DNA of 64,000 bases from an uncultured Gaiellales bacterium (GTDB lineage Bacteria; Actinomycetota; Thermoleophilia; RBG-16-64-13): assembly GCA_964497095.1 (NCBI GenBank), contig CAZCCL010000001.1, positions 348-64,347 of the forward strand. Direction: 5' to 3'. The notes beneath the pieces were generated by a model. The model made no database searches. It saw nothing but the letters and a program-made list of their open reading frames with translations, and was not told where the DNA came from. Positions 3,391 to 34,556 of this stretch are shown here, piece after piece; the first letter of the stretch is position 1; each line of letters opens with the position of its first letter. A program made the position numbers and the translations under genes.

Positions 3391-5016
3391 GTGATGGTCG
3401 CCCGCCCCCTTATGCTGTACGACACCACGCTGCGCGATGGGATGCAGCGTGAGGGGCTGAGCATCTCGGTCGACGAGAAGGTCCGTATCGCCGCTCGGAT
3501 CGCCGATGTGGGCGTCCACGTGATCGAAGGCGGCTTCCCTGGCTCCAACCCCAAGGACCAGGAGTTCTTCCACACATTGGAGAACGTGCCGCTGGCCGGG
3601 GCGGTGGTGGCGGCCTTCGGGATGACCAGGGGCAGGGGAGTGACCGCCGAGAATGACTTCCAGCTACGGGCATTGGCCGAGTGCTGGGCTCCGGTCGCGG
3701 CCGTCGTGGGTAAGACCTGGGACCTCCACCTGGAGAAGGTCCTCCGCGTGGACCGCGAGGAGAACCTGCGCATGATCGCCGAGTCGGTGGCCTTCCTGCG
3801 GGGCGAGGGGAAGCGCGTCTTCTACGACGCCGAGCACTTCTTCGACGCCTTTGCGGCCCACCCCGACTACGCCTTGGCCTGTCTCCGGGCTGCGGCGGAG
3901 GCCGGGGCGGAGGCCGTCTGTCTGTGCGACACCAACGGAGCCGCTCTTCCCACCCAAGTGGCCCAGGTGGTGGAGCGGGTGGGGTTGGAGGTGGGCGCCG
4001 TCTGCAGGGTGGGCATCCATACCCACAACGACGCGGGCTGCGCGGTGGCCAACTCCCTGGTCGCGGTGGAGCGGGGGGCCGACATGGTGCAGGGCACTAT
4101 CAACGGCTATGGCGAGCGGTGCGGCAACGCCGACCTCTGCGCCGTCATCCCGGCGCTGAAGCTCAAGATGGGCATCGACTGCGTATCGGACCGGGATCTG
4201 GCGCAACTCACCGATGCCGCTCATTTCGTGGCCGAACTCTGCAACGTGTCGCCCGACCCACATCAGCCCTACGTGGGTCGGAACGCCTTCGCCCACAAAG
4301 GGGGCATGCACGTAGCGGCGGTGGAGCGGGATCCCAGTACCTTCGAGCACGTTGATCCGGCCCTGGTAGGGAACGCTCCCCACGTGTTGGTGTCGGAGCT
4401 GTCCGGGCGCGCCACCATCGCCCAGCGGGCCCAAGAGCTGGGCTATCCCTTGGAGGACGACGAGGAACTGCTGGACCGGGTGCTGAACAGCGTGAAGCGG
4501 AAAGAGCATGTGGGCTATCACTACGAGGCCGCCGACGCCTCGTTCGAGTTGCTCCTGCGAACCGAGATGGGCCTGCAGGTGGAACTGTTCCATCTGGAGA
4601 CCTTCCGCATCATCGTGGAGAAGCGGGAAGACGGCGAGACGGTGAGCGAAGCCACGGTCAAGGTGCACGTGGGTGGGGACCGCTTCATAGAGACCGCCGA
4701 GGGCAACGGTCCGGTCAATGCCCTTGACAAGGCCCTGCGCATGGCCATCGAGCGCAGGTTCCCCGAGGTGCACGATATCCGCCTCGTGAACTATAAGGTG
4801 CGTATCCTGGACGAGGACAAGGGCACGGCCGCGAAGACCCGGGTGCTGATCGACAGCTCCGATGGTCGTGACAGCTGGGGCAGCGTGGGGGTGAACGTCA
4901 ACGTGGTCGAAGCCTCGTGGCAGGCTTTGGTGGACTCCATCACCTACGGTCTACTGCGTGTCGCCGGCCCAGGACCCGTTCCGGAAGCGGAGAGTGAGAA
5001 CGAGGAGAGCGCATGA
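3391..5016 (+). CDS. cimA: (R)-citramalate synthase / 2-isopropylmalate synthase family (LeuA-related, CimA-type)
   Basis: N-terminus LYDTTLRDGMQREGLSISVDEKVRIA…IEGGFPGSNPKDQEFF matches the citramalate-synthase branch of the LeuA/HMGL-like family. C-terminal LeuA-dimer-like region. Adjacent to ilvE. Confidence 0.75.
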   Translation: MMVARPLMLYDTTLRDGMQREGLSISVDEKVRIAARIADVGVHVIEGGFPGSNPKDQEFFHTLENVPLAGAVVAAFGMTRGRGVTAENDFQLRALAECWAPVAAVVGKTWDLHLEKVLRVDREENLRMIAESVAFLRGEGKRVFYDAEHFFDAFAAHPDYALACLRAAAEAGAEAVCLCDTNGAALPTQVAQVVERVGLEVGAVCRVGIHTHNDAGCAVANSLVAVERGADMVQGTINGYGERCGNADLCAVIPALKLKMGIDCVSDRDLAQLTDAAHFVAELCNVSPDPHQPYVGRNAFAHKGGMHVAAVERDPSTFEHVDPALVGNAPHVLVSELSGRATIAQRAQELGYPLEDDEELLDRVLNSVKRKEHVGYHYEAADASFELLLRTEMGLQVELFHLETFRIIVEKREDGETVSEATVKVHVGGDRFIETAEGNGPVNALDKALRMAIERRFPEVHDIRLVNYKVRILDEDKGTAAKTRVLIDSSDGRDSWGSVGVNVNVVEASWQALVDSITYGLLRVAGPGPVPEAESENEESA

Positions 5017-5813
5017 AGCTGGCCCGCGTGGAGTATGGAGGTGAGGTCTACGAGACCGCCGTCACCTGCGACGGATACATGGTCGAGGCGACGAGCGCCG
5101 GTCCCGGGGGCGCAGTCCCCGCCGGCACGGTGATCTCCGAGGCCGAGGCCCGTCTGTTGCCGCCGGCGGTCCCGGGAAAGATCCTGGGGGTGGGCTGGAA
5201 CTTCCGCGAGCACATCAAGGAGATGATCACCCGGCTCAGGGGGACGCCGACCCCCGAGCGCAAGGACGACCACGTGCCCCGTCCGCTGCTGTTCCTCAAG
5301 CCGCCCTCCAGCCTCATCGGGCACGGGGAGGCCATCATCTACCCCAAGGACGCTACGCGCGTGGAATACGAAGGTGAGCTGGCGGTGGTGATCGCCCGGG
5401 AGACGCGGAGGGTGACGCCCGAAGAGGCGCGACTGTGCGTGCTCGGCTGGACCTGCGCGAACGACGTGACGGAGCGCGATCTACAGCAGGAGGACAAGCA
5501 GTGGTGGCGGGCCAAGGGCTTCGACACCTTCGCCGTGGCCGGGCCCTATCTGGAGACCGAGGCTCCCCGACCCGAAGCCTGGCTGCGCACCCGGGTGAAC
5601 GGGGAGCTCCGCCAGGAAGCTCAGATGCTGGACATGATCCGCGACCCTTTCGAGATCATCTCCCTCGTCAGTCAGGCCATGACCCTCGAGCGGGGCGACA
5701 TGATCATGCTGGGGACCCCTTCGGGTGTGGGCGAACTGCACCCCGGGGACGAGGTGGAGGTCGAGATCGACGGGGTGGGCTACCTGCGCAATCCGGTCGA
5801 GTCGGAGCGGTAG
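5013..5813 (+). CDS. Fumarylacetoacetate hydrolase (FAH) family protein
   Basis: …FLKPPSSLIGHGEAIIYP…YEGELAVVIA…GWTCANDVTERDLQ…KGFDTFAVAGPYL… is an FAH/HpcE-like fold. ATG overlaps the cimA stop (ATGA). Confidence 0.8.
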   Translation: MKLARVEYGGEVYETAVTCDGYMVEATSAGPGGAVPAGTVISEAEARLLPPAVPGKILGVGWNFREHIKEMITRLRGTPTPERKDDHVPRPLLFLKPPSSLIGHGEAIIYPKDATRVEYEGELAVVIARETRRVTPEEARLCVLGWTCANDVTERDLQQEDKQWWRAKGFDTFAVAGPYLETEAPRPEAWLRTRVNGELRQEAQMLDMIRDPFEIISLVSQAMTLERGDMIMLGTPSGVGELHPGDEVEVEIDGVGYLRNPVESER

Positions 5814-6758: not shown

Positions 6759-9700
6759 TTGTCGTCCGTTTTGCCGCCCGTCGCAGGCGAGACCATCGGG
6801 GGTAGTCCTATTCCCACTGCTGAAGAGACTGCGGGTGGAGCCGCCGCGGCGCCGGTCGATGCGGCTGCGGGCGGATCGGCTGCAGGGACGAGCCCCGGGC
6901 CGGCGGGCGAGACGGACCCCGCCCGCCCGGCCGCCGGCTTCTGCCACCTGCACGTGCACACTCACTACTCCGCTCTGGACGGGGCCTGCAAGGTGGAGGA
7001 CCTGGTGGCTCGGGCTGCTGAGCTCGGCATGCCCGCGCTGGCCATCACCGATCACGGGGTGCTTTCGGGTGCCATCAAGTTCTACGAAGAGTGTCTCAAG
7101 GCCGGCGTCAAGCCCATCATCGGACTCGAGACCTATGTGGTGGACGACCGCTTGCGCAAGGAGGGGATGAACGAGGAGCGCTGGCACCTCACCCTTCTCG
7201 CCCGGGACGACACGGGCTATCGCAACCTGCTCAAGCTGGGCAGCCTCGCCTTCCTCGAGGGCTACTACTACAAGCCGCGCCTCGACTACCAGGTCCTCAG
7301 GGAGCACGCAGAGGGCCTCATCTGCCTGACGGGATGTGCAAGCGGGCGGCTGTCGCGCGCCCTCCAGAACGGGCAGACAGCCGCCGCCGAGGCCGAAGTG
7401 CAGCGACTGGTCGGCATCTTCGGCGAGGGGAACGTGTATCTGGAGATGCAGGAGACCGGTATCCGCGAGTTGGCGGAAGTGAACCCGCGGATGGGGGAAC
7501 TGGCCGAGCGCACGGGCCTGAAGTTGGTGGCCACCAACGACGTGCACTACCTCCGCGAGGGCGACGCCGACGCGCATGACGTGCTGCTCTGCATCCAGAC
7601 GGGATCCCGGCTGTCGGAGGAGAACCGCCTGCGGTTCAACTCGCAGGAGTTCTACTTCAAGAGCCCAGAAGAGATGAGGGCCGTGTTCTCCGATCACCCG
7701 GAGGCCGTCTCGAACACCCTGGAGGTGGCGGACCGCTGCAACGTGCATATCGCGCTCGACGAGATGCTCATCCCCCGGTTCCCGGTACCGGAAGGGTACG
7801 ACGAGTCTTCGTATCTGCGGGAGCAATGCGAAAGAGGACTGGTCCGCCGCTACGGGGATGCGGTGACATCCGAGATAAGGGAACGGCTCGAAAGCGAACT
7901 GGAAGTGGTGGAGAAGATGGGCTTCCCGCCCTACTTCCTCATCGTGTGGGATTTCGTCACGTTCGCAAAGGAGGCCGGTATCCCCGTGGGACCCGGCCGC
8001 GGCTCGGCGGCGGGCTCTCTGGTGTCGTACCTGCTGGGTATCACCGACCTCGATCCCATCGCCTACGACCTGCTCTTCGAGCGATTCCTCAACCCCGACC
8101 GTATCAGCATGCCCGATATCGACATCGACTTCTCCGTGAACGGACGCGAGAGGGTGATCGAGTATGTGGCCGACAAATACGGACGCGACCGGGTGGCTCA
8201 GATCGCCACTTTCGGCACCATCAAGGCCCGGCAGGCCATTCGGGACGCTGCCCGGGTGATGGATGTGCCCTACGGGCAGGCCGACCGTATCGCCAAGCTG
8301 GTGCCCGAAGTGCTCAACATCACTTTGGATCAGTGCCTGCGAGACCCGAAGTGCGAGCTGCGCGCCGCCTACGACGGCGACGAGTTGGTCCGCGAGGTGG
8401 TGGACATGGCCCGGCCTCTGGAAGGGCTCATCCGCCAAGATTCCATCCATGCCGCCGGGGTGGTCATCTCCATGGGGCCCCTCACCGATCATCTTCCCCT
8501 CATGCAGAAGGGGGACGCCGAGGTGGTCACCCAGGTCTCCATGGGGGACGTGGAGAGGCTGGGCCTGCTCAAGATGGACTTCCTAGGACTGCGAAACTTG
8601 GACGTCATCGACAGCGCCGTCGGCATCATCCGAGACGGGGGTCACCCGGAATTCGACATCGAATCGATCCCCCTGGACGACGCCCGGACGTACCAGATGT
8701 TGGCCAAGGGGGACTCGGAAGGGGTGTTCCAGTTCGAATCCAGCGGGATGCGGGAAGCCTTGCGCGAGATCCAGCCTACGCGGCTGGACGATCTGATTGC
8801 GCTCGTCGCCCTGTATCGGCCTGGGCCGATGGAGTTCATCCACGACTACGCGCGCAACAAGCGCGATCCCGAGAGCATCAGGTACGAGGACGAGCGGTTG
8901 CAGTCCATCCTCAGCCCCACCTACGGAGTGGCCATCTATCAGGAACAGCTGATGGAGATCTCCAAGCGGATCGGTGGGTTCAGCCCCGCGGAAGCCGACG
9001 ACCTGCGCAAAGCCATCGGCAAGAAGATCCGGGCAAAGATGGACCGGCTCGAGCCCAAATTCCGCGCCGGAGCGGCCGCTTCAGGAACGTCACCGCGGGT
9101 GATCGATCACCTGTGGTCGCTGATGGAGAAGGCGGGGGATTACTCGTTCAACAAGTCACACGCCGCCTGCTACGCCCTCATCTCCTATCGCACCGCCTAC
9201 CTCAAAGCCAAGTTCCCCGTGCAGTACATGGCCGCGCTCATCTCCAGCGTCATGGACACCAAGGACAAGGTCCCCTTCTACGTGACGGTGGCCAACGAGA
9301 TGGGCATCGAGGTGTTGCCTCCGGACATCAACGAGTCGGTCCTCGACTTCCGCGGCGTGGAGGGGCGCATCCGCTTCGGTCTGAACGCGGTCAAGAACGT
9401 GGGGGAGACGGCCATCCGCGTCATCCTGGACGCCCGGCGAAGCGGCGGACCATTCCTGGATCTGTTCGACTTCTGCGAACGCGTCGACCTGGGCGTGGTG
9501 AACGGGCGGGCTATCGAGAGCCTTATCAAGTCGGGGGCCATGGATTCCGTCGGCCCTTCGCGGCGGGGGATGCTCCTCGTCATGCAGCAGGCGATGGCCC
9601 ACGGCAAGAAGGTCAGGGCCGACGCCGATAGAGGCCAGGGATCCATCTTCGATCTCATGCCGGAGCCGGAAGCGCCGGCGGCCGATAGCCGGGGTGCCGC

Positions 9701-10478
9701 CGCCGAGTCCGACTCTCCGGCAGGCGCCCGCGTCGGGACGAACGGCTCGCCGGGGAACGGGTCTCGGGGCAATGGACGGCCGCCGGTGGAGATACCCCCC
9801 GATGACTTCAGCCGGGAAGAGCTTCTGGCATTGGAGAAGGAGACGTTGGGACTGTATGTGAGCTCGCACCCCCTGAAGGATCTCCGGCAGCACATCAAGA
9901 GAGAGGCAGGCCATTTGATCTCCCAACTAGGGGAACTGCCGGACGGCACGGTCACTACCATCGTGGGCATGGTGACGGCGGTGAAGCGGATCACCACGAA
10001 GAAATCGGGCGAGCTCATGGCCTTTGTCACCGTCGAGGGTATGGAAGGCTCCGTCGAGATCATCTGTTTCCCGGCGATCTACCAGGAGAACAAGGAGATC
10101 CTGATACAGGACAAGGTGGTGAAGATCAAGGGCCGGGTGGATCACAAGGACGAGGCCGAGACCAAGTTCATCCCCATGGCCATCGAAACGTTCTCGCCCC
10201 GGACGGGACTGGAGCCTCTGGCTCTTTCCGTCGATGGCGACAGCTTCCCCAGCACGGTCATAGAGGACCTCAAGCGTATCCTGGCCCGCTTCCCCGGGCA
10301 GTGTTCCGTCGACATGTACGTGCAGGTGGGGGCGGATGCGCGCCGCCTGCGTTTCGGGAACGGCTACCGGGTCGACCCCCAAGCCAGTCTTTTCGCGGAA
10401 CTGAAGGAATTGCTGGGGGAAAGCTGTGTGCTGCACGGGTCGGGATCGTCGACCCTCGGCAACGGTTCCGCGAGGTAG
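6759..10478 (+). CDS. dnaE: DNA polymerase III alpha subunit (PHP + polymerase + OB domains)
   Basis: FCHLHVHTHYSALDGA… PHP N-terminus with a long polymerase core. TTG start with AAGGAG RBS. The first about 55 aa are a low-complexity Ala/Gly/Pro extension, so the true start could be later. Confidence 0.9.
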   Translation: MSSVLPPVAGETIGGSPIPTAEETAGGAAAAPVDAAAGGSAAGTSPGPAGETDPARPAAGFCHLHVHTHYSALDGACKVEDLVARAAELGMPALAITDHGVLSGAIKFYEECLKAGVKPIIGLETYVVDDRLRKEGMNEERWHLTLLARDDTGYRNLLKLGSLAFLEGYYYKPRLDYQVLREHAEGLICLTGCASGRLSRALQNGQTAAAEAEVQRLVGIFGEGNVYLEMQETGIRELAEVNPRMGELAERTGLKLVATNDVHYLREGDADAHDVLLCIQTGSRLSEENRLRFNSQEFYFKSPEEMRAVFSDHPEAVSNTLEVADRCNVHIALDEMLIPRFPVPEGYDESSYLREQCERGLVRRYGDAVTSEIRERLESELEVVEKMGFPPYFLIVWDFVTFAKEAGIPVGPGRGSAAGSLVSYLLGITDLDPIAYDLLFERFLNPDRISMPDIDIDFSVNGRERVIEYVADKYGRDRVAQIATFGTIKARQAIRDAARVMDVPYGQADRIAKLVPEVLNITLDQCLRDPKCELRAAYDGDELVREVVDMARPLEGLIRQDSIHAAGVVISMGPLTDHLPLMQKGDAEVVTQVSMGDVERLGLLKMDFLGLRNLDVIDSAVGIIRDGGHPEFDIESIPLDDARTYQMLAKGDSEGVFQFESSGMREALREIQPTRLDDLIALVALYRPGPMEFIHDYARNKRDPESIRYEDERLQSILSPTYGVAIYQEQLMEISKRIGGFSPAEADDLRKAIGKKIRAKMDRLEPKFRAGAAASGTSPRVIDHLWSLMEKAGDYSFNKSHAACYALISYRTAYLKAKFPVQYMAALISSVMDTKDKVPFYVTVANEMGIEVLPPDINESVLDFRGVEGRIRFGLNAVKNVGETAIRVILDARRSGGPFLDLFDFCERVDLGVVNGRAIESLIKSGAMDSVGPSRRGMLLVMQQAMAHGKKVRADADRGQGSIFDLMPEPEAPAADSRGAAAESDSPAGARVGTNGSPGNGSRGNGRPPVEIPPDDFSREELLALEKETLGLYVSSHPLKDLRQHIKREAGHLISQLGELPDGTVTTIVGMVTAVKRITTKKSGELMAFVTVEGMEGSVEIICFPAIYQENKEILIQDKVVKIKGRVDHKDEAETKFIPMAIETFSPRTGLEPLALSVDGDSFPSTVIEDLKRILARFPGQCSVDMYVQVGADARRLRFGNGYRVDPQASLFAELKELLGESCVLHGSGSSTLGNGSAR

Positions 10479-10508
10479 CGGCAGGTAGCGCATCCGGGCC
10501 GCAGCCGA

Positions 10509-10547
10509 CCCTGCCGGCGAAAGGTCATTCTGAAACGAGTTCTAAGG
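10509..10547 (+). promoter_or_regulatory. Copy A of conserved 39-nt motif CCCTGCCGGCGAAAGGTCATTCTGAAACGAGTTCTAAGG, 29 nt upstream of the Mo-oxidoreductase ATG
   Basis: 36/39 identical to 33417..33455 upstream of selD. Same orientation and same distance to the RBS and start codon. Confidence 0.5.
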
Positions 10548-10576: not shown

Positions 10577-13219
10577 ATGAACGGGGGCGGGTGCGGCGGC
10601 AAGGACACTCCCGGTTCGGAAGCGCCCGGCGCAGAAGTGCGCGGTGAGAGGACGCTCATCCGGGACATCAGCTTCTGTGGCGTGGCCAACGGCGCGAACT
10701 CCTGCCTGGTGGATATCGCCGGCGGCAAGATCCTGCGTATCCGGCCCATGCACTACGACTGGAAGTACCGCCTCGACGAACTGGGTCAATGGGAGATGCA
10801 CGCCCGGGGCATGACTTTCAGGCCCACCACCAAGAGCCTGATCCCTCCGCTCAGCCTCGCGTACAAGAAACGGGTGCAATCTCCAGCCCGGATCAGGTTC
10901 CCGATGAAGCGGGTCGACTTCGATCCAGACGGGGAGCGGAACATCCAGAACCGGGGTGTGAGCAAATACGTACGCATCTCCTGGGACGAGGCTCTCGACA
11001 TCATCACCGGCGAGATGCTGCGCGTTCGGGAGAAGTACGGGCCTACCGCCATCCTGTATCAGGCCGACCAGCACGGCGAGAACAAGGTCGTTCACGGTCC
11101 CCACGGCTGCGGGAGGAAGCTCCTACGGTTGTTCGGGGGGTTCACGCTCCAGGCCCGGCAGCCGGACAGCTGGGAAGGCTGGTGCTGGGGGGCGAAGCAC
11201 GTATGGGGCATGGAGCCGGTCGGGCAGCAGGTGCCACAGAGCAACTTGGTCTATGACATCGCCAAAAACACGGAGTTGTTGCTCTTCTGGGGCTGCGACC
11301 AGGAGACGACCACCTGGGGTTGGATGGGGCAACTACCCAGCCGTCTCAGCTTCTGGTTCACGGAGTTGGGGATCAGACAGGTCTATATCGCGCCCGACCT
11401 CAACTACGCGGCGGCGGTGCATGCCGACCGCTGGATCCCCATACTCCCCAACACCGATGCCGCTCTCTACCTGGCCATCGCCTATCAGTGGTTCGAGGAG
11501 GGCACCTACGACAAGGAGTACCTCGAGACCCACGCCTGCGGCGTCGAAGCATTCGAGGCATATGTGATGGGAGTGCAGGACGGGGTTCCCAAGAGCCCGG
11601 CGTGGGCGGCCCCGATTACCGGTGTGCCGTCGCGCATCATCAAAGCGCTGGCTCGGGAGTGGGCGTCCAAGCGAACGACGATCGCCATCGGGAACGGGGG
11701 ACCGATGATCCGCGGCCCCTACTCGAGCGAGCCGGCCCGCCTGCAGGTGCTCTGCCTGGCCATGCAGGGATTGGGCGGACCTGGGGCCAATCAGGCCAAG
11801 ATGGAGGATTGGGGCTTCATGGACGATCTGGCCCAGGTCGGGTGCCCCGAACCCGTCATGATTCCCAGCCTGTTCGCCGCCTACACCGGGGGCACCGGCG
11901 GCGAGACCAACCATGCCTTCGTGCCGAAGACCCTGGTCCCCAAAGCCATCATGGAGGGGAGCTGCGAGTGGTGGGGCAACGAGCACGAGATGGCCCCCCG
12001 GGAGAACCAGTTCGTCCACTACCGTTATCCGGCCGAGGGATGTTCCCGGATCCACATGGTCTGGACCGACTCCCCCTGTTTCATGACCTGCTGGAACGAC
12101 GGCAACAGCTTCGTGCGGGCCATGCGCCACCCCGATATCGAGTTCGTCTTCGCCCAGCATCCCTGGTGGGAAAACGATTGCCTCCTGGCCGACGTGATCC
12201 TGCCGGTCAGCACCAAGCTGGAGGAAGACGACATCAACGCCGACCTCTACAGCGGCCAGTCCATCCTGGTCTTCCCGGAGGAGCGATGCGTGGAACCGGT
12301 CGGGGAGTCCTTCAGCGACTACGAGATCGTCTGCAAGATTGCGGAGAGGCTGGGACTGCTCGAGGCATACACCGGGGGCAGGTCCGTCGACGACCTGAGG
12401 CGCCTGGGTTTCGAGACCTCCGGGGTCCGGGACCTGGCGGCCGGTGGGCCTGCAACGTGGGAGGAGTTCGTGGAGCAAGGCTATGTCACGCTTCCCACCA
12501 ACCCGGAGTGGGAGAAGGTGCCCGCCGGTCTCATCGACTTCTATCGCGACCCCGAGAGCCATCCGCTCAGCACTCCCACCGGCAAGATCGAGTTCTACGC
12601 TACCGGTCTGGCCGAGCACTTCCCCGACGACGAGGAGAGGCCGCCGGTACCCCGGTGGATCCCAGCCGGTCCCACCCACCAGGAGACGCTGGGGACAGAG
12701 CGGGCCAAGAGGTTTCCCCTGCTGGTGGTGTCGAACCACCCTCGTTGGGGCATACACGCCCAGCACGAAGACATCACGTGGCTCCGCGAGATCGAGACCT
12801 GCAAGGTCGGCGGCCCAGACGGCTACAAATACCAGCCTCTGTGGGTCCATCCCAGGGATGCAGCCACCCGGGGCATCGAGCACGGTGATGTGGTCATCAT
12901 CCACAACGAGCGCGGGGCGGTCTTGGCCGGCGCGTACGTGACCGAACGCATCATTCCTGGGGCGGTAAGCATGGACCACGGGGCCAAGTTCGACCCGATC
13001 GTCCCTGATGCTCTCGACCGGGGAGGCAACATCAACGCAATCGTACCCGGCCACACCACCTCCAAGAACGCGGTGGGCATGGCGGTGAGCGGTTTCCTGG
13101 CTGAGGTGGAGAAGGCCGACCTGGCGGGTCTCAGGGCCAAGTACGCCGAGGCATTTGCCCGGCCGTTCCACGCAGACGCCGGTCCGGGCGTGGAGGCATG
13201 GCTTGAAGCCGACACGTAG
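10577..13219 (+). CDS. Molybdopterin-dependent oxidoreductase, DMSO-reductase superfamily (catalytic subunit without N-terminal Fe-S motif; BisC/TorA/pyrogallol-transhydroxylase-like)
   Basis: 880-aa protein with molybdopterin-oxidoreductase-like organisation (…IAIGNGGPMIRG…, MDHGAKFDP…). GGAAGGAG RBS then ATG at 10577. No Tat motif, no CxxCxxxC. Confidence 0.65.
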   Translation: MNGGGCGGKDTPGSEAPGAEVRGERTLIRDISFCGVANGANSCLVDIAGGKILRIRPMHYDWKYRLDELGQWEMHARGMTFRPTTKSLIPPLSLAYKKRVQSPARIRFPMKRVDFDPDGERNIQNRGVSKYVRISWDEALDIITGEMLRVREKYGPTAILYQADQHGENKVVHGPHGCGRKLLRLFGGFTLQARQPDSWEGWCWGAKHVWGMEPVGQQVPQSNLVYDIAKNTELLLFWGCDQETTTWGWMGQLPSRLSFWFTELGIRQVYIAPDLNYAAAVHADRWIPILPNTDAALYLAIAYQWFEEGTYDKEYLETHACGVEAFEAYVMGVQDGVPKSPAWAAPITGVPSRIIKALAREWASKRTTIAIGNGGPMIRGPYSSEPARLQVLCLAMQGLGGPGANQAKMEDWGFMDDLAQVGCPEPVMIPSLFAAYTGGTGGETNHAFVPKTLVPKAIMEGSCEWWGNEHEMAPRENQFVHYRYPAEGCSRIHMVWTDSPCFMTCWNDGNSFVRAMRHPDIEFVFAQHPWWENDCLLADVILPVSTKLEEDDINADLYSGQSILVFPEERCVEPVGESFSDYEIVCKIAERLGLLEAYTGGRSVDDLRRLGFETSGVRDLAAGGPATWEEFVEQGYVTLPTNPEWEKVPAGLIDFYRDPESHPLSTPTGKIEFYATGLAEHFPDDEERPPVPRWIPAGPTHQETLGTERAKRFPLLVVSNHPRWGIHAQHEDITWLREIETCKVGGPDGYKYQPLWVHPRDAATRGIEHGDVVIIHNERGAVLAGAYVTERIIPGAVSMDHGAKFDPIVPDALDRGGNINAIVPGHTTSKNAVGMAVSGFLAEVEKADLAGLRAKYAEAFARPFHADAGPGVEAWLEADT

Positions 13220-13225
13220 CGGGGC

Positions 13226-14332
13226 TTAGGGTGTTTCCTCCTCGCGGAGGATGCGCAGGCCTTCCGTCCTGAGGCTGATACGGATCGGGGCCCCTTTGCT
13301 CAGGTCGAGTTGCTGATAGAAGTAGTTCGCGCCCCGCGCCTCCAACTCGTGGCCGTTCGTGAGAGACAACCGGATGACCCGCATCTCCCGCTGGTTCTCA
13401 ACACCGAGCACGGTGGCGTCCAGTTGATTGAAGGCCAGTCCGCCGAGCGCCGGCCGGTCGGGGTAGAGGATCTTGACGTCCTCCGGAGCGATGTAGACGG
13501 GGACTATCTCGCCCGGAGAGCTGGGCTGGGCAGGCGCGTACAGCTTGAGGCCGTCCCACACGAGGGTCACGTGGTCGGCGGTCGCGGCGGAGACCCGGGC
13601 GTGGAAGATGTTGCGGATGGCAAGCACTTCAGCCGCCCGCATGCTGGAGGGCCGACGGAACACGTCACCCACCGCTCCGACCTGCTGTAGCTCCCCGTCC
13701 CGCAAGACCGCGAGTCGGTCACCGAGCGCGAAGGCGTCCTCCACGTTGTGAGTGACGCAGATCACTATGAGGCTTCTCTCCACCTGGAGCGCCCTCAGAT
13801 CGGTCCTGAGCCTCTCCCGAAGCCCCGGGTCGAGTGCGGAGAAGGGCTCGTCGAGCAGCAGGACTTCGGGGTCCCTGGCCAGGGCTCGGGCGATGGCTAC
13901 TCGTTGCTGCTGCCCCCCGGAAAGCTGGTGCGGGAGACGGTCGACCAGCGGACCCAGGCCCATCTGGTCGACCAGAGTCAGGGCCCGCTCGCGGCTGTTC
14001 GAATCGCGACCCAGCGGATAGCGCACGTTCTGAAGGACGGTCAGGTGGGGGAAGAGCGCGTAGCTCTGGAAGACGTACCCGATGCCGCGTTTGCGCGCGG
14101 GCAGATTCACATGCTCTCCGGCCGTTCCTCGCCGGAACAAGACCTGGCCGTCCAGGACTATCTCTCCCTCGTCGGGTGACACCAGGCCGGCTATCGACTC
14201 CAAGGTCATGGTCTTGCCGGATCCGGACGGACCGAAGAGGACCAGGACCTCCTCTTCCACCTGAAGACTCAGATCCAAAGTGAAAGAGGGCAGCCGTCTG
14301 TGGATATCCACGGTAAGTTGACGTTCTTTCAT
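13226..14332 (-). CDS. ABC transporter ATP-binding protein, ModC/WtpC-like with C-terminal TOBE/MOP domain
   Basis: Walker A GPSGSGKT, signature [15 protein letters not shown], Walker [12 protein letters not shown], then a roughly 110-aa TOBE-like tail. ATG at 14332 with AGGAG RBS. The upstream part of the called ORF is rejected. Confidence 0.75.
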
Positions 14333-14627
14333 GCGCTCCTGACAAGACGCAGAGCGTGGCGCGGGCGGGTGCGACGGTCCCGCCACCAGCCGGTTACCCC
14401 GCGGCCGGATCGGGCCTGCCCCGGCCGGACCCTGACCGTCCCGAGCCTCCTTCCTGGTTCCTCCGGTTATCCGCCGAGAAGTATAACGACTGGGAAACCC
14501 CATTCCTAGCTCCGTTGGACGGCGAAGGACGGATCCGGCACCGGGGCCCGCCGCGATCGCCGGGAGCAGCCGGTACGGTATTCTTAGGCGGCGTGCCCGA
14601 GCGATCCGACGGTCCGGAGTCCGCAGC

Positions 14628-15944
14628 ATGAGGATCAAAGAACTGAGCACCGCCTCCGTGTCCGATGAGGTAACCGCTTTGCGGGTGCCGGAGTCGGCGA
14701 ACCGGGAGGTAGCGGCGACTGTGGCCGCCCTGATCGCCGACGTGCGCCTGAGGGGCGATGCTGCCGTGGTGGAAGCCAGCGTTCGGTTCGACTGGGAAGG
14801 GGCGAGCGCCTCGGAATTGGTGGTGGCGGTCGATGACCTGGAGGCAGCCTACCGCCGGGTCGATCCCCGAGTGATGGCTGCGCTTGAAACCGCCCGCGAC
14901 AACTGCACCTTCTTCCACGAGCACGAGCTGAGGCCGGACTGGGAGGACGAGGGCGCCCAGGGGCAGAGGCTGGGTATGCGCTACCGTCCGGTGGAGCGCA
15001 CCGGTCTGTACGTGCCGGGCGGGCTGGGCTCCTATGCCTCCACGGTCATCATGAACGCCGTCCCTGCGCGCGTGGCCGGAGTGAAGGAACTCGTCATCTG
15101 CACCCCTCCTGGCCGGGACGGAGCCGTCGACCTCGCTGTGCTGGCCGCGGCCCGGCTCATGGGCATAGAGCGGGTGTTCCGAGCGGGCGGCGCCCAGGCT
15201 ATCGCGGCCCTGGCCTACGGGACCGAGACGATCCCGCGGGTGGATGTGATCTGCGGGCCCGGCAACGCCTACGTGATGGAGGCCAAGCGCCAGGTCTACG
15301 GGGCCGTAGGCATCGACAGTCTGGCCGGCCCGAGCGAGGTACTGGTGGTGGCCGATGGAACGGCCCGCCCTGATTGGATCGCCGCAGACATGCTCGCCCA
15401 GGAGGAGCACGGGAGCGGGGCCCAGGCGGTCCTGATAGCCGAGTCGGAACGTCTCTGTCTGGAGGTGGGCGACGCCCTCGAGCGCCTGCGTCCCGCCACC
15501 CTGGCCGGCGGCCCCGACCGCATCCGGACCGGGCGCGAAGACGACGGCCTCCGGGCTTTCTATCCCGCAGCGGACGAGGAGTTTCTGGATCTCGCGGCCC
15601 GGTTCGTCAACTCCTACGCCCCCGAGCATCTCGAGATCCAACTGGCCGAGCCCGGGGCCTTTCTTCCCGGGGTGAGGTCGGCGGGCGCCATATTCGCCGG
15701 CCATTTGACGGCGACGGCCTTCGGCGACTACGTGGCCGGCAGCAACCATGTGCTCCCCACCGGAGGGACGGCCCGTTTCGCCTCTCCGCTCTCGGTGGAT
15801 ACGTTCATGCGCAGATCGTCGCTCGTGGAGATGACGCCCGAGGCGGTGGCGGCCCTTGCTCCTCACCTCGCCGAATTGGCGGACAGTGAGGGTTTCTCGT
15901 TTCACCGCGTGTCCGCCGAGTTGCGCGCCGCCGACACGCACTGA
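14628..15944 (+). CDS. hisD: Histidinol dehydrogenase
   Basis: Full-length HisD pattern (…GGAQAIAALAYGTETIPRVDVICGPGNAYV…HLE…). Confidence 0.9.
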   Translation: MRIKELSTASVSDEVTALRVPESANREVAATVAALIADVRLRGDAAVVEASVRFDWEGASASELVVAVDDLEAAYRRVDPRVMAALETARDNCTFFHEHELRPDWEDEGAQGQRLGMRYRPVERTGLYVPGGLGSYASTVIMNAVPARVAGVKELVICTPPGRDGAVDLAVLAAARLMGIERVFRAGGAQAIAALAYGTETIPRVDVICGPGNAYVMEAKRQVYGAVGIDSLAGPSEVLVVADGTARPDWIAADMLAQEEHGSGAQAVLIAESERLCLEVGDALERLRPATLAGGPDRIRTGREDDGLRAFYPAADEEFLDLAARFVNSYAPEHLEIQLAEPGAFLPGVRSAGAIFAGHLTATAFGDYVAGSNHVLPTGGTARFASPLSVDTFMRRSSLVEMTPEAVAALAPHLAELADSEGFSFHRVSAELRAADTH

Positions 15945-31622: not shown

Positions 31623-32693
31623 CTAGGATCGGCCGGAGGGCCCAGAAGGCGGCAAGTCGCGGATCTCGTCGTTCCTCCTCGCAGGCTGGGTGGCTGGGGT
31701 CATGCGCCGGCCTCTTCCACCAAGCGCACGGCCGGCCAGGACCACGAGCCCGAAGAGTACGACCGTGCCCGCCAGACCGGCGATGGCCGTAGCCACCCTC
31801 TCGTTGCCGACTCCGGGCAGCTGGTAGTCGCCGAGTGGAGAAAGACCCCACGTAGGTTCCTCAGCAGCCGCCTGTTCGAATCCCCTGTCCGCTGCGACCT
31901 TCTCCAGGCCATCGGGAGAGCCGGAGGCGAAGGGCGAGACGAACACCGCCAGGGCGACGGCGACGACCAGCGCACCGGCGACGAACGACCAGAAGCGCGC
32001 CCTTCCACTCATGCGCATGCCTGGTCGTCCGGCGGCGCGGCGCACCGTCTCACGAGGTAGGTCGAACGTCTTGACCAGATCGGGGCGGGTGGCCAGGACC
32101 GCAGCCACCACAGCCGTGGTGATCAGGGCCTCGCCGACGGCTATGACCATGTGTACGGAGACCATCGCGGGTAGAGCGATACGGAGCGGCGTGGTCCCGG
32201 AGACGGCCAGTTCGGCCGAAGCCACGGCCGAAGCTGCGACCACCGATATCCAGGAAGCCACGGCTACCGAGACCAAGTAACCGGACAGAGTGCGAGGAAG
32301 GAGCCTCTTCAGTCCAACGAAGACTGCATACCCGACGAAGACCGCGACCACGCCCATGTTGAACACGTTGGCTCCCAAGGCGGTGATGCCCCCGTCGGCC
32401 ATACCCAAGGCCTGGACCACGAGGACGACGGTCATCACAATCGGGGCCGACCACACTCCCAGAAGTGCGACGGCGAACATCGCCCCCAGAAAGTGCCCGC
32501 TTGTGCCGCCGGCGACGGGGAAGTTGAGCATCTGAGCGGCGAAGATGAAGGCCGCACCGACCCCGAGCAGCGGCACGGTCCTCTCGCCCAAGTCGTTCTT
32601 GGTCTTGTGGACCGCGTACGCCACCGTCCCAAGCGATACCGCTCCGGTCGCGACTGCAGTGGGGATGTTTACGAACCCGTCAGGGATGTGCAT
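31623..32693 (-). CDS. cbiM: CbiM/NikM substrate-capture component fused to PDGLE (CbiN-like) domain
   Basis: MHIPDGF… N-terminus diagnostic of CbiM/NikM. C-terminal roughly 130 aa contains the PDGLE motif plus two TM helices. AGGAG RBS. Confidence 0.8.
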   Translation of the reverse strand: MHIPDGFVNIPTAVATGAVSLGTVAYAVHKTKNDLGERTVPLLGVGAAFIFAAQMLNFPVAGGTSGHFLGAMFAVALLGVWSAPIVMTVVLVVQALGMADGGITALGANVFNMGVVAVFVGYAVFVGLKRLLPRTLSGYLVSVAVASWISVVAASAVASAELAVSGTTPLRIALPAMVSVHMVIAVGEALITTAVVAAVLATRPDLVKTFDLPRETVRRAAGRPGMRMSGRARFWSFVAGALVVAVALAVFVSPFASGSPDGLEKVAADRGFEQAAAEEPTWGLSPLGDYQLPGVGNERVATAIAGLAGTVVLFGLVVLAGRALGGRGRRMTPATQPARRNDEIRDLPPSGPSGRS

Positions 32694-32708: not shown

Positions 32709-33161
32709 CTAGTCTTCCCGGCAGGCGCTGCAGAGGCCGAAGACTGTGACTTCGCGGGTCGCAAAACCCTGGTCTTCAAGCAAGGTGGTACCCAGGCCTC
32801 CCAGATCCTCGTCGTGCACGTGGGTCACCCGACCGCACGTTTCGCAGACCAGGTGGTGATGGGGGACCTCTTCTTCCACCTCGAAGAAGCGCCGAGTGGG
32901 ACCGAGGTGGGTCTCCCGGACCAGATGAAGGTCGACCAGCAACTCCAGAGTGCGGTACACGGTGGACATGTTGATGTTCGGAAACCGGTCCTGCACCCGG
33001 GCACAGACCTCTTCGGCGCTCATATGCGAGCCGTGCTCGCGGAGCACATCCCATACCAAAGTGCGCTGGGGGGTCAGTCTGTACCCCATCTCGTGGAGCG
33101 TGCGGGTGGCATGATGGGTCACGGTTCTTGCAAGCTTATTGCAATAGCCTTTTGTTGTCAA
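32709..33161 (-). CDS. nur: Fur-family metalloregulator, probably nickel-responsive Nur
   Basis: Fur-family DNA-binding helix (…YRLTPQRTLVWDVL…) and metal-site HHH/Cys residues (…HHHLVCETCGRVTHVHDE…). Directly precedes cbiMNQO. Own promoter carries a Nur box. The start is ambiguous: TTG at 33161 or GTG at 33122. Confidence 0.7.
   Translation of the reverse strand: MTTKGYCNKLARTVTHHATRTLHEMGYRLTPQRTLVWDVLREHGSHMSAEEVCARVQDRFPNINMSTVYRTLELLVDLHLVRETHLGPTRRFFEVEEEVPHHHLVCETCGRVTHVHDEDLGGLGTTLLEDQGFATREVTVFGLCSACRED
33128..33144 (-). promoter_or_regulatory. Nur-box-type operator TTGCAA-N5-TTGCAA overlapping the nur promoter -10
   Basis: Perfect TTGCAA-gctta-TTGCAA read from the sequence, matching the published Nur box (tTGCaa-N5-ttGCAA). 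Located in the nur leader. Confidence 0.55.
33133..33161 (-). promoter_or_regulatory. Putative nur promoter TTGACA-17 nt-TAAGCT (valid only if nur starts at GTG 33122)
   Basis: Perfect -35 hexamer with 17-nt spacer read on the minus strand. Under the TTG-start model the -35 is instead codons 1-2. Confidence 0.3.
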
Positions 33162-33280
33162 CAGCAGTCAGGATGCGGGGGACCTTCGCCCCCTTGGCCC
33201 CCAGCGCCTCGGTCTGCTAGTGTCTCGGGTGCTCGCGTATGTGCGGTCCAGGACGCCTACGCAGGCCTCTGAAGGAGCGG

Positions 33281-33314
33281 CGCCTGAGAACTCGTTTCAG
33301 AGTGGCATCTCGGC
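33281..33314 (-). promoter_or_regulatory. Copy C (inverted, partial) of the conserved motif; core CTCTGAAACGAGTTCTCAGG on the minus strand
   Basis: Reverse complement of 33281..33304 matches the cores of copies A and B (14-nt identical run CTGAAACGAGTTCT). Confidence 0.4.
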
Positions 33315-33416
33315 CACCGAGGCCGCGCTTGGCGGCCGGACGCTTCGTTCTTTCGTCGCGTCCGTGTCTCCAGAACGCCTGCTTCCTGCGTCCTTGCCGC
33401 GGGCATGCCAATCTCA

Positions 33417-33455
33417 CCCTGCTGGCGAAAGGTCATTCTGAAACGAGCTCTGAGG
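33417..33455 (+). promoter_or_regulatory. Copy B of conserved 39-nt motif CCCTGCTGGCGAAAGGTCATTCTGAAACGAGCTCTGAGG, 33 nt upstream of the selD ATG
   Basis: See copy A. Followed by AAGGAGG RBS. Confidence 0.5.
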
Positions 33456-33488
33456 GCTATCGAACGGGAAGAAAGGAGGTGATGGTCG

Positions 33489-34556
33489 ATGGAGGCGATC
33501 CCGAGGCTGACCACGCTCTCGCACGGTTCGGGCTGAGCGTGCAAATTGGGCCCCAAGGACTTGGGGCAGGTGATGGAGATGCTGCCACGCGTGGGTGATC
33601 CCGCTCTGCTCGTGGGCGCGGATACGTTGGACGATGCGGCCGTCTACCGCGTGACGGGTGAGATCGCCCTGGTGCAGACGATCGATTTCTTCACGCCGGT
33701 GGTCGACGACCCCTACGATTTCGGTCGTATCGCCGCCGCCAACGCTTTCTCCGACGTCTACGCCATGGGCGGCCGGCCCCTGACCGCGCTCAATATTGTG
33801 TGCTTCCCTTCGGGGGTCCTGCCGTTGGAAACCCTGGGGAGGATCCTGCAGGGCGGGGCGGAGACGGCTCGGCTCGCCGGGGCTACCATCGTTGGTGGGC
33901 ACACCATCGACGACCCCGAACCCAAGTATGGGCTGGCCGTCACCGGCGTGCTGGAGCCGGGCCATGAGCTGACAAACGCCGGCGCCAGGCCAGGCGACGC
34001 CCTCATCCTCACGAAGCCGTTGGGTACCGGGGTGATCTCGACCGCCATCAAGCAGGGGACCGCCTCTGCCGAGGCCATCGCGGCCGCCACCGCCTCCATG
34101 GCGACTCTCAATCGGGGCGGGGCCGAGGTAGCTCGTGCTTGCGGTGCCCATGCGCTCACGGACATCACCGGCTTCGGCCTCCTGGGCCACCTCAGCGAGT
34201 TGTGCCGGGCGAGCGGGGTGCTCGCCGAGGTGTGGTACGACCGGTTGCCCCTGCTGGTCCAAGCAGAAGCACTGGCCCAGACCGGGGTCGTCCCGGGCGG
34301 CACGAGACGCAACCTGGAGTATGTGCAGCCCTGGACGGCGTTCGACCCCGAGTTGGAGCCTTGGCAGCACCTCCTGTGCGCCGATGCGCAGACGTCCGGC
34401 GGTCTCATTCTTGTGGTCTCGCCTGAGAAGGTGCCGGAAGCACTCGAGGCGCTGACGGCCGGAGATACCCCGGCTGCGGTGGTCATCGGCCGGGTCATCA
34501 CCAGGGAGGAAGCAAAGGGGTCCCTACTCACAGTCGGATTCGCCGGAACCGGGTGA
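33489..34556 (+). CDS. selD: Selenophosphate synthetase (selenide, water dikinase), selenocysteine-containing form; UGA-Sec at 33534-33536
   Basis: With ATG at 33489 the N-terminus reads MEAIPRLTTLSHGSG-U-ACKLGPK…, matching the SelD consensus SHGAG(C/U)GCK with TGA at the Cys17 position. The rest is a full AIR-synthase-like SelD body. The ORF caller started at 33546. Confidence 0.9.
33550..33567 (+). other. SECIS-like hairpin GCCCCAA-GGAC-TTGGGGC, 13 nt downstream of the selD UGA
   Basis: 7-bp perfect stem with GGAC loop read from the sequence. Confidence 0.6.

Follow-up and report, generated by a model that had tools for sequence, protein, structure and literature searches.

The window analyzed here, a stretch of 64,000 nt from an uncultured Gaiellales bacterium, contains two loci at which nearly the same short sequence precedes a gene (Table 1). 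The gene context was established by translation and Pfam. At the first locus, dnaE is followed by the gene for a molybdopterin oxidoreductase (Mo enzyme) whose first domain is AhtL-like and which lacks an obvious Tat signal. No database record was identical to its protein sequence. The best 120 of more than 6,000 database relatives of this enzyme are all at least 68% identical to it, and the few named relatives among these 120 belong to Thermoleophilia, Dehalococcoidales and Thermodesulfobacteriota. In all syntenic relatives, the Mo enzyme gene is followed by a convergent gene for an ABC ATPase with a TOBE domain (modC-like; 13226-14650 on the minus strand of the window).

At the second locus, selD lies next to a FUR-family gene and cbiM-PDGLE. 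The in-frame TGA of selD is codon 16 (…HGSG-U-ACK…) and is also present in the orthologues at L078, L079 and L080, which indicates that SelD itself is a selenocysteine protein; gene callers place the start of the ORF after this TGA. A tRNA/tmRNA scan of the whole window found none, and thus there is no tRNA-Sec gene (selC) nearby. The region between the two divergent genes harbors a GTCTGCTAGTGTCTC box (33211-33226) that is kept in all selD orthologues, as is the AAGGAGGTGATG start region. The box, conserved in all four orthologous loci, contains the -10-like hexamer TAGTGT and is a candidate selD promoter. A palindrome-like sequence (TTGCAAGCTTATTGCAA) beside the start of the FUR-family gene (region 33162-33230) is likewise conserved in all four loci and is a candidate Fur-type box.

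The original prediction drew attention to a stretch at 10509-10547 that agrees in 36 of 39 positions with 33417-33455. This identity was verified, none being expected by chance, and it extends to a 40-mer (37/40 between 10508-10547 and 33416-33455). The 24-mer GGCGAAAGGTCATTCTGAAACGAG is shared without any mismatch (10516-10539 and 33424-33447); it occurs exactly twice in the window and was found in none of 100 dinucleotide-preserving shuffles. The accompanying description of the two copies is also accurate. Both are on the plus strand as are the downstream genes, they end 29 nt (Mo enzyme ATG, 10577) and 33 nt (selD ATG, 33489) before the start codon, an AGGAG-type ribosome-binding site follows 3' of each of them, and the peptide RFRMTFRRQG can be read straight off the reverse strand (CGT TTC AGA ATG ACC TTT CGC CGG CAG GG). 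What had been overlooked is a third copy of the core, which is inverted (CACTCTGAAACGAGTTCTCAGG on the minus strand; 33283-33312) and precedes the copy next to selD by 113 nt. Hence, the repeated unit near selD is an element of 163 nt, and the 39-mer is only its right end.

Table 1. Features of the two loci in the window and spans bounded by the same terminal repeats in metagenomes
Feature	Position in the window or span	Strand	Remarks
dnaE	6759-10478	+	
35-nt solo terminal fragment of the MITE	10508-10542	-	dnaE-Mo enzyme intergenic region
TAA triplet beside the solo end, retained copy of the target triplet	10543-10545	.	position and form as in the TNA duplications of the family
AhtL-like molybdopterin oxidoreductase (Mo enzyme)	10577-13219	+	
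cbiM-PDGLE	31626-32693	-	
FUR-family gene	32709-33161	-	between cbiM and selD, divergent from selD
Left target-site duplication TGA	33285-33287	.	direct repeat of 33451-33453
Full-length 163-nt MITE	33288-33450	-	fur-selD intergenic region, inside the probable selD 5' UTR
Left terminal inverted repeat GAACTCGTTTCAGAGTGG	33288-33305	+	core of the overlooked inverted copy
Right terminal inverted repeat TCATTCTGAAACGAGCTC	33433-33450	+	
Right target-site duplication TGA	33451-33453	.	
selD	33489-34556	+	in-frame TGA at 33534-33536
MITE	161-165 bp		
Same-ended spans	215 and 245 bp		
Same-ended span	410-434 bp		one ORF of ~97 aa, no Pfam match
Same-ended span (L115)	492 bp		shorter variant, ends as in the 614-bp element
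Same-ended span	510 bp		cupin
Same-ended span	614 bp		
Same-ended span	685 bp		ORF of ~200 aa
Same-ended span	717-725 bp		signal-peptide protein
Autonomous IS (L199)	901 bp		
Same-ended span	1063 bp		alpha/beta hydrolase

The two copies of the 39-mer turned out to be different parts of the same kind of sequence. The copy upstream of selD (33417-33455) is composed of the right terminal repeat, a subterminal arm, the TGA duplication and two bases of the flank. The complete element at this site matched a profile built from 28 full-length copies over positions 1-162 (nhmmer, E = 6.6e-32) and could be aligned with 29 other full-length copies; the minus strand of the window corresponds to the more stably folding ("forward") strand of the family. 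The copy upstream of the Mo enzyme gene is composed of a 35-nt fragment and TAAGG. This fragment contains one terminal inverted repeat with the first part of the arm, and it matched positions 1-35 of the profile only (E = 1.7e-6). What looked like a leader motif of the Mo enzyme is thus a solo terminal fragment with a TAA triplet behind it. Solo ends of 30-55 nt were detected by nhmmer at several other loci as well. It is assumed that the fragment at the Mo enzyme locus would be the remnant of a full insertion that has suffered a deletion. The 64-kb window thus contains one full copy of the element and one fragment.

To describe the family, one genome per bacterial and archaeal species was scanned with the pattern TCTGAAACGAGYTCTNAGG, which fits all three copies of the window. 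Of the 73 loci obtained, about 60 belong to MAGs that bear the labels Gaiella, Gaiellaceae, Gaiellales, Thermoleophilia or "uncultured Actinomycetes"; a single MAG contains as many as 11. The remaining 13 loci are in other phyla; their flanks are unrelated, the arms of the element are absent and their number is below the rough chance expectation (~35) for a pattern of this information content. No transposase adjoins the matches in Blastococcus and Promicromonospora (L057, L058), which were taken as chance. When the sites were lined up, about 140 nt upstream of the motif were conserved and the conservation stopped sharply after ...GAGTTC-TNA. Pairing of outward-facing ends in the fetched loci gave 37 inverted pairs, 27 of which span 161-166 nt, and 28-30 full-length copies align from end to end. 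The terminal inverted repeats comprise about 18 nt (GAACTCGTTTCAGAATGA ... TCATTCTGAAACGAGTTC) and form the first helix of the alignment, which is 96% paired over 19 pairs. With about 163 nt, the element folds back on itself, has no coding capacity and is too short for a transposase; its GC content is about 65%. Eight further contigs of the metagenome that contains a selD region 100% identical to that of the window carry the window's own subfamily (86-91% identity). At one locus (L015:4597-6153), an IS256-family IS with a transposase of 406 aa has inserted into a copy with a TTA/TTA duplication, which represents a nested insertion.

Of the 37 pairs, 19 are flanked by identical triplets; if only the 22 pairs with TNA on both sides are considered, the triplets agree in 19. 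They are direct repeats with a variable N (TTA, TAA, TGA, TCA), which identifies them as a target-site duplication, not as an extension of the inverted repeat. The next base at unconstrained ends is usually G, and so the target is roughly C-TNA-G. The original prediction had also likened ATTCTGA...GTTCTAA to OmpR/PhoB-type direct repeats. It is not a pair of operator half-sites; the final TAA is the target triplet in the flank and lies outside the element. The duplications bear, moreover, on the idea that the element is an extragenic palindrome of the REP/REPIN type, mobilized by a RAYT (Y1) transposase and not derived from a DDE transposon. A long imperfect hairpin, the extragenic position and the presence of multiple copies would suit such a palindrome, and the strand asymmetry of the fold described below would fit a single-strand mechanism. 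However, REP/REPIN insertion is not known to generate target-site duplications, and the matching N at 19/22 both-TNA pairs as well as the occurrence of identical ends on an IS5-family DDE element (see below) make this origin extremely improbable. No RAYT gene was noticed at the loci inspected. A CRISPR-like solitary repeat (...ATTCTGAAAC ending) was considered too and rejected; there is no array, and the sequence is explained by duplications and inverted ends.

The environment of the insertions was examined at 94 classifiable ends, 50 of which point toward the 3' end and 44 toward the 5' end of a gene. In 21 cases, the duplicated triplet is the stop codon of the neighboring gene (TTA/TCA on the strand of the element correspond to TAA/TGA on the opposite one), while many 5'-facing ends read TAAGGAG..ATG and abut the Shine-Dalgarno sequence. 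The downstream genes include those for a methyltransferase, a cupin, an OYE-type flavin oxidoreductase, signal peptidase I, a hydantoinase, RecA, a cell-wall-binding protein, DUF1844, DUF1269 and DUF1684 proteins, undecaprenyl-diphosphate synthase and a thiolase. These genes are functionally unrelated and without a common theme. It had been proposed that a generic repeat would be recognized by its occurrence at dozens of sites without positional bias. Dozens of sites with unthemed downstream genes were indeed found, as is typical of a generic repeat, but a positional bias does exist, toward stop codons and TNA triplets close to Shine-Dalgarno sequences. This bias is attributable to the choice of the target site and not to regulation. 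In a genome with a GC content of about 70%, C-TNA-G sites would be concentrated at stop codons (TAA/TGA) and immediately 5' of Shine-Dalgarno sequences (TAAGGAG), and a TNA target together with selection against gene disruption can account for insertions at just these positions. Copies would thereby accumulate beside the ends and starts of genes and leave the genes unbroken.

Between some convergent gene pairs (L005, L007, L012, L021, L027, L053 and others), the element fills nearly the whole intergenic space, and the stop codons of both neighbors lie within a few bases of its ends. Another copy (L059:4397-4557) ends 9 nt before the start codon of recA (4567-5697) and abuts its AGGAGG ribosome-binding site. 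Evidently, an insertion beside the translation start of an important gene is tolerated.

Orthologous loci were compared to determine whether the sequence belongs to the two leaders. In relatives with 81-89% protein identity, the element is absent from both the selD and the Mo enzyme site, although the flanks are conserved. Synteny (dnaE, Mo enzyme, modC-like gene, his operon) is kept in the closest relatives whose contigs were usable. In one of them (L002, Mo enzyme 87% identical), both flanks are kept and "GC" is found in place of the 35-nt fragment; in a second one (L003, 84%), the spacer is different and the motif is absent, but the genome carries the family elsewhere, on the same contig (L020) and on other contigs of the same MAG (L030, L053, L070). 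The contig of a third relative (L001, 95%) begins precisely with TAAGG, immediately behind the element, which is the kind of assembly break caused by repeats. At selD, a locus 100% identical to that of the window (L077) has the same element, while nhmmer revealed empty sites at L078 (89%), L079 (81%) and L080 (85%). The sequence at L078 is ...GGTGCC-CGA-GGGCTGTCGATGG..., compared to ...GCGCC-TGA-(163 nt)-TGA-GGGCTATCGAACGG... in the window. L078 is a clean empty site with an uninterrupted target. Because the GTCTGCTAGTGTCTC box and the AAGGAGGTGATG start region are kept across the orthologues, the element of the window must have landed between the probable promoter and the ribosome-binding site, i.e. 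in the 5' UTR of selD. The selD copy is a full insertion with TGA duplication, which is probably carried passively in the leader.

These data are hardly compatible with the original prediction that the 39-mer is a shared operator or an alternative-sigma promoter, bound by a transcription or sigma factor that co-regulates selD and the Mo enzyme gene. Such a function is suggested by the same orientation of the two copies 29-33 nt upstream of the start codons, and MITEs are in principle able to bring regulatory sequences to genes (PMC10969869). On the other hand, the orthologous leaders lack the motif while their flanks, ribosome-binding sites and promoter-like box are conserved, the same sequence is found beside dozens of unrelated genes, at 3' ends as often as at 5' ends, and part of the supposed second half-site is the target triplet. 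Scans of both sites for sigma-70-like promoters and intrinsic terminators gave no hit. An ECF-sigma promoter with GAAAC as the -35 element was rejected, as the region 16-17 nt downstream of it, in which the -10 element would be expected, is not conserved among the copies. A common operator or promoter is thus largely refuted, and we give it very little credence. With it falls the hint that the Mo enzyme is related to selenium, for the motif is a mobile repeat and not a link to selD. The two genes very probably share the motif because each of them has acquired an insertion of the same repeat, and not because of a common regulator.

The fold of the element merits separate consideration. The window copy is predicted to fold with -77.6 kcal/mol (z = -4.9). 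Across 30 copies, the 42 predicted pairs consist of standard pairs in 93.7% of the cells, compared to 86.9% with shuffled partners and 27-49% when the partners were slid by 1-3 columns. Compensatory (both-side) changes were observed in 21 of the 42 pairs, mostly in the internal helices, and G.U-type cells outnumber A.C-type cells 143 to 20. It is always the same strand that folds more stably (30/30 copies, mean difference 17 kcal/mol), and the consensus energy of the alignment is -45.6 on this strand versus -11.7 on the other. Paired columns show a transition bias (136 vs. 80), with none comparable in the unpaired columns (101 vs. 85). The orientation of the element relative to flanking genes is not biased (17 vs. 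21 facing 3' ends, 15 vs. 11 facing 5' ends), hence co-transcription with host genes does not account for the asymmetry. These values have to be read with the structure being predicted on the stronger strand and the copies being related by descent; in addition, hairpin-templated repair could mimic compensation.

The stable and strand-asymmetric fold with its compensatory changes could also be taken as a sign that the motif belongs to a cis-regulatory structured RNA, a riboswitch-like leader or attenuator common to both mRNAs. Yet the 35-nt fragment in the Mo enzyme leader cannot form the structure, and in the selD leader it is the less stable strand that is transcribed. Furthermore, the orientation to neighboring genes is random, half of the ends abut the 3' ends of genes, and the duplications, the empty sites and the transposase-bearing relative are those of mobile DNA. 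Rfam gave no match at gathering thresholds in the whole window and none at E <= 10 over 33230-33500. A regulatory RNA leader as the origin of the motif is therefore very unlikely. The asymmetry of the fold is nevertheless the only point for which a MITE does not account; it leaves the main conclusion unchanged. Together with the internal compensatory changes, it is not obviously predicted by purely selfish DNA, and there may be room for an additional role at the RNA level or of the single strand. That the family is a mobile structured-RNA module, one strand of which would be under selection to fold, appears rather unlikely. Such a module might be a small RNA damping the parent transposase or a portable hairpin for mRNA stability or processing. 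If this were true, the expression of selD in this lineage would be measurably changed by the copy in its 5' UTR.

An autonomous copy was found neither in the window nor in close relatives nor at the 73 genome loci. The only credible inverted pair of 600-3000 nt in the genome loci, L015, is not a parent IS but the element interrupted by the IS256-family IS mentioned above; other pairs of this size in the genome loci were dismissed as degenerate (≤5-mismatch) chance matches. A metagenome scan with the terminal repeat and one further base chosen to exclude the arms of the MITE (GARCTCGTTTCAGAATGANH) returned at least 120 loci, and pairing of the ends among the matches listed resulted in a series of sizes, nearly all members of which are preceded by TNA (Table 1). 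An autonomous IS was seen once among these matches. It is located on a contig from a soil metagenome (JGI contig Ga0136846_1195433; L199:45-945, minus strand), has the same ends of 17-18 nt (GARCTCGTTTCAGAATGA) and is flanked by a TAA/TAA duplication. One frame encodes DUF4096 (PF13340, "transposase of IS4/5 family" domain, E = 7e-25), and an overlapping second frame DDE_Tnp_1/DDE_Tnp_1_2 (PF01609/PF13586, E = 2e-22 and 3e-9). On the basis of its Pfam domains and the layout with two ORFs, this element is assigned to the IS5 family and is IS427-group-like. IS427-group members possess two overlapping ORFs with a frameshift (PMC3281130), and a 3-nt target is known from the IS1031 group and from ISLxx6, an actinobacterial IS427/IS1031 intermediate (PMC2516522). 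The soil element resembles the IS427/IS1031 groups in its overlapping ORFs, DUF4096, DDE domain and 3-nt target (PMC3281130, PMC2516522), whereas the MITE encodes nothing. We infer that a transposase of this type could mobilize the MITE in trans, by cut-and-paste into C-TNA-G sites.

In addition to the IS, the size series includes TNA-flanked cassettes of 410-1063 bp which have the same terminal repeats and carry one passenger gene each but no transposase (L031:2158-2573, L049:1226-1652, L069:1479-1894, L102, L122, L127, L144, L145, L148, L149, L084/L146/L154/L155). The passengers encode a protein of ~97 aa without Pfam match, a cupin, an alpha/beta hydrolase and signal-peptide proteins. Cassettes with an identified passenger ORF look like relatives of the MITE of the mobile-insertion-cassette type and not like MITEs themselves. 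The mobile insertion cassettes (MICs) of Bacillus cereus (cited in PMC3281130) are comparable to these cassettes of 410-1063 bp, in which the ends of the MITE enclose one passenger gene and no transposase, but the parent IS family and the host phylum are different.

Taken together, the 39-base motif very probably represents one end of a MITE, a non-autonomous transposable element of ~163 nt. This element has terminal repeats, a target-site duplication, a small size and dispersed copies, there are filled and empty sites, and an autonomous element has the same ends. The original prediction had mentioned a short REP/MITE-like repeat as an alternative, which is correct in view of the inverted ends, the duplications and the dispersed copies. 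Prokaryotic MITEs are defined as elements smaller than 500 bp with terminal repeats of 4-30 bp, flanking direct repeats, an intergenic location, a stable stem-loop and an IS relative (PMC10969869). Judged by its sequence, the element of the Gaiellales shows each of these features. It is similar to Correia, ERIC, Chunjie and QMITE (PMC10969869) in its size below 500 bp, the terminal inverted repeats, the short direct repeats and the lack of a transposase gene. Further similarities to these four are the tens of mostly intergenic copies with size variants and partial copies, the stem-loops predicted for transcripts and the ends in common with an IS able to act in trans. By contrast, MITEs are usually described as AT-rich (PMC10969869), and the Gaiellales element differs from IS-derived MITEs in being GC-rich. 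It also differs from them in its hosts, uncultured actinobacteria of the Gaiellales/Thermoleophilia type, in having its own terminal repeat GAACTCGTTTCAGAATGA, and in a TNA duplication whose triplet is very often the stop codon of the neighbor.

The Tourist-type MITEs of eukaryotes (PIF/Harbinger) are non-autonomous derivatives of IS5-like DDE elements which fold back and have a 3-bp TNA/TAA duplication. The type of mechanism would be the same in the bacterial host discussed here, which is to be understood as an analogy of mechanism and not as membership. In this context, it is noteworthy that Harbinger is related to IS5 (PMC12730594). A literature search of limited extent found no published description of this MITE family in Gaiellales or Thermoleophilia. 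Within this search, the family is an unreported member of the familiar type of IS-derived MITEs.

For the organism studied here, the main consequence is that a false lead has been removed, since these data provide no connection between the cytoplasmic Mo-bisPGD enzyme and selenium metabolism or a regulon in common with selD. For the annotation of Gaiellales-type genomes, the family accounts for contig breaks (for instance where L001 begins), for spurious ORFs with a common peptide on the reverse strand, and for recurrent "motifs" adjacent to start and stop codons. When the genome is GC-rich, a preference for TNA targets directs insertions to stop codons and Shine-Dalgarno-proximal sites and can thus mimic a leader motif. 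Finally, the family demonstrates that one set of ends can exist in several forms, as a MITE, as an autonomous IS and as cargo cassettes with a single gene.
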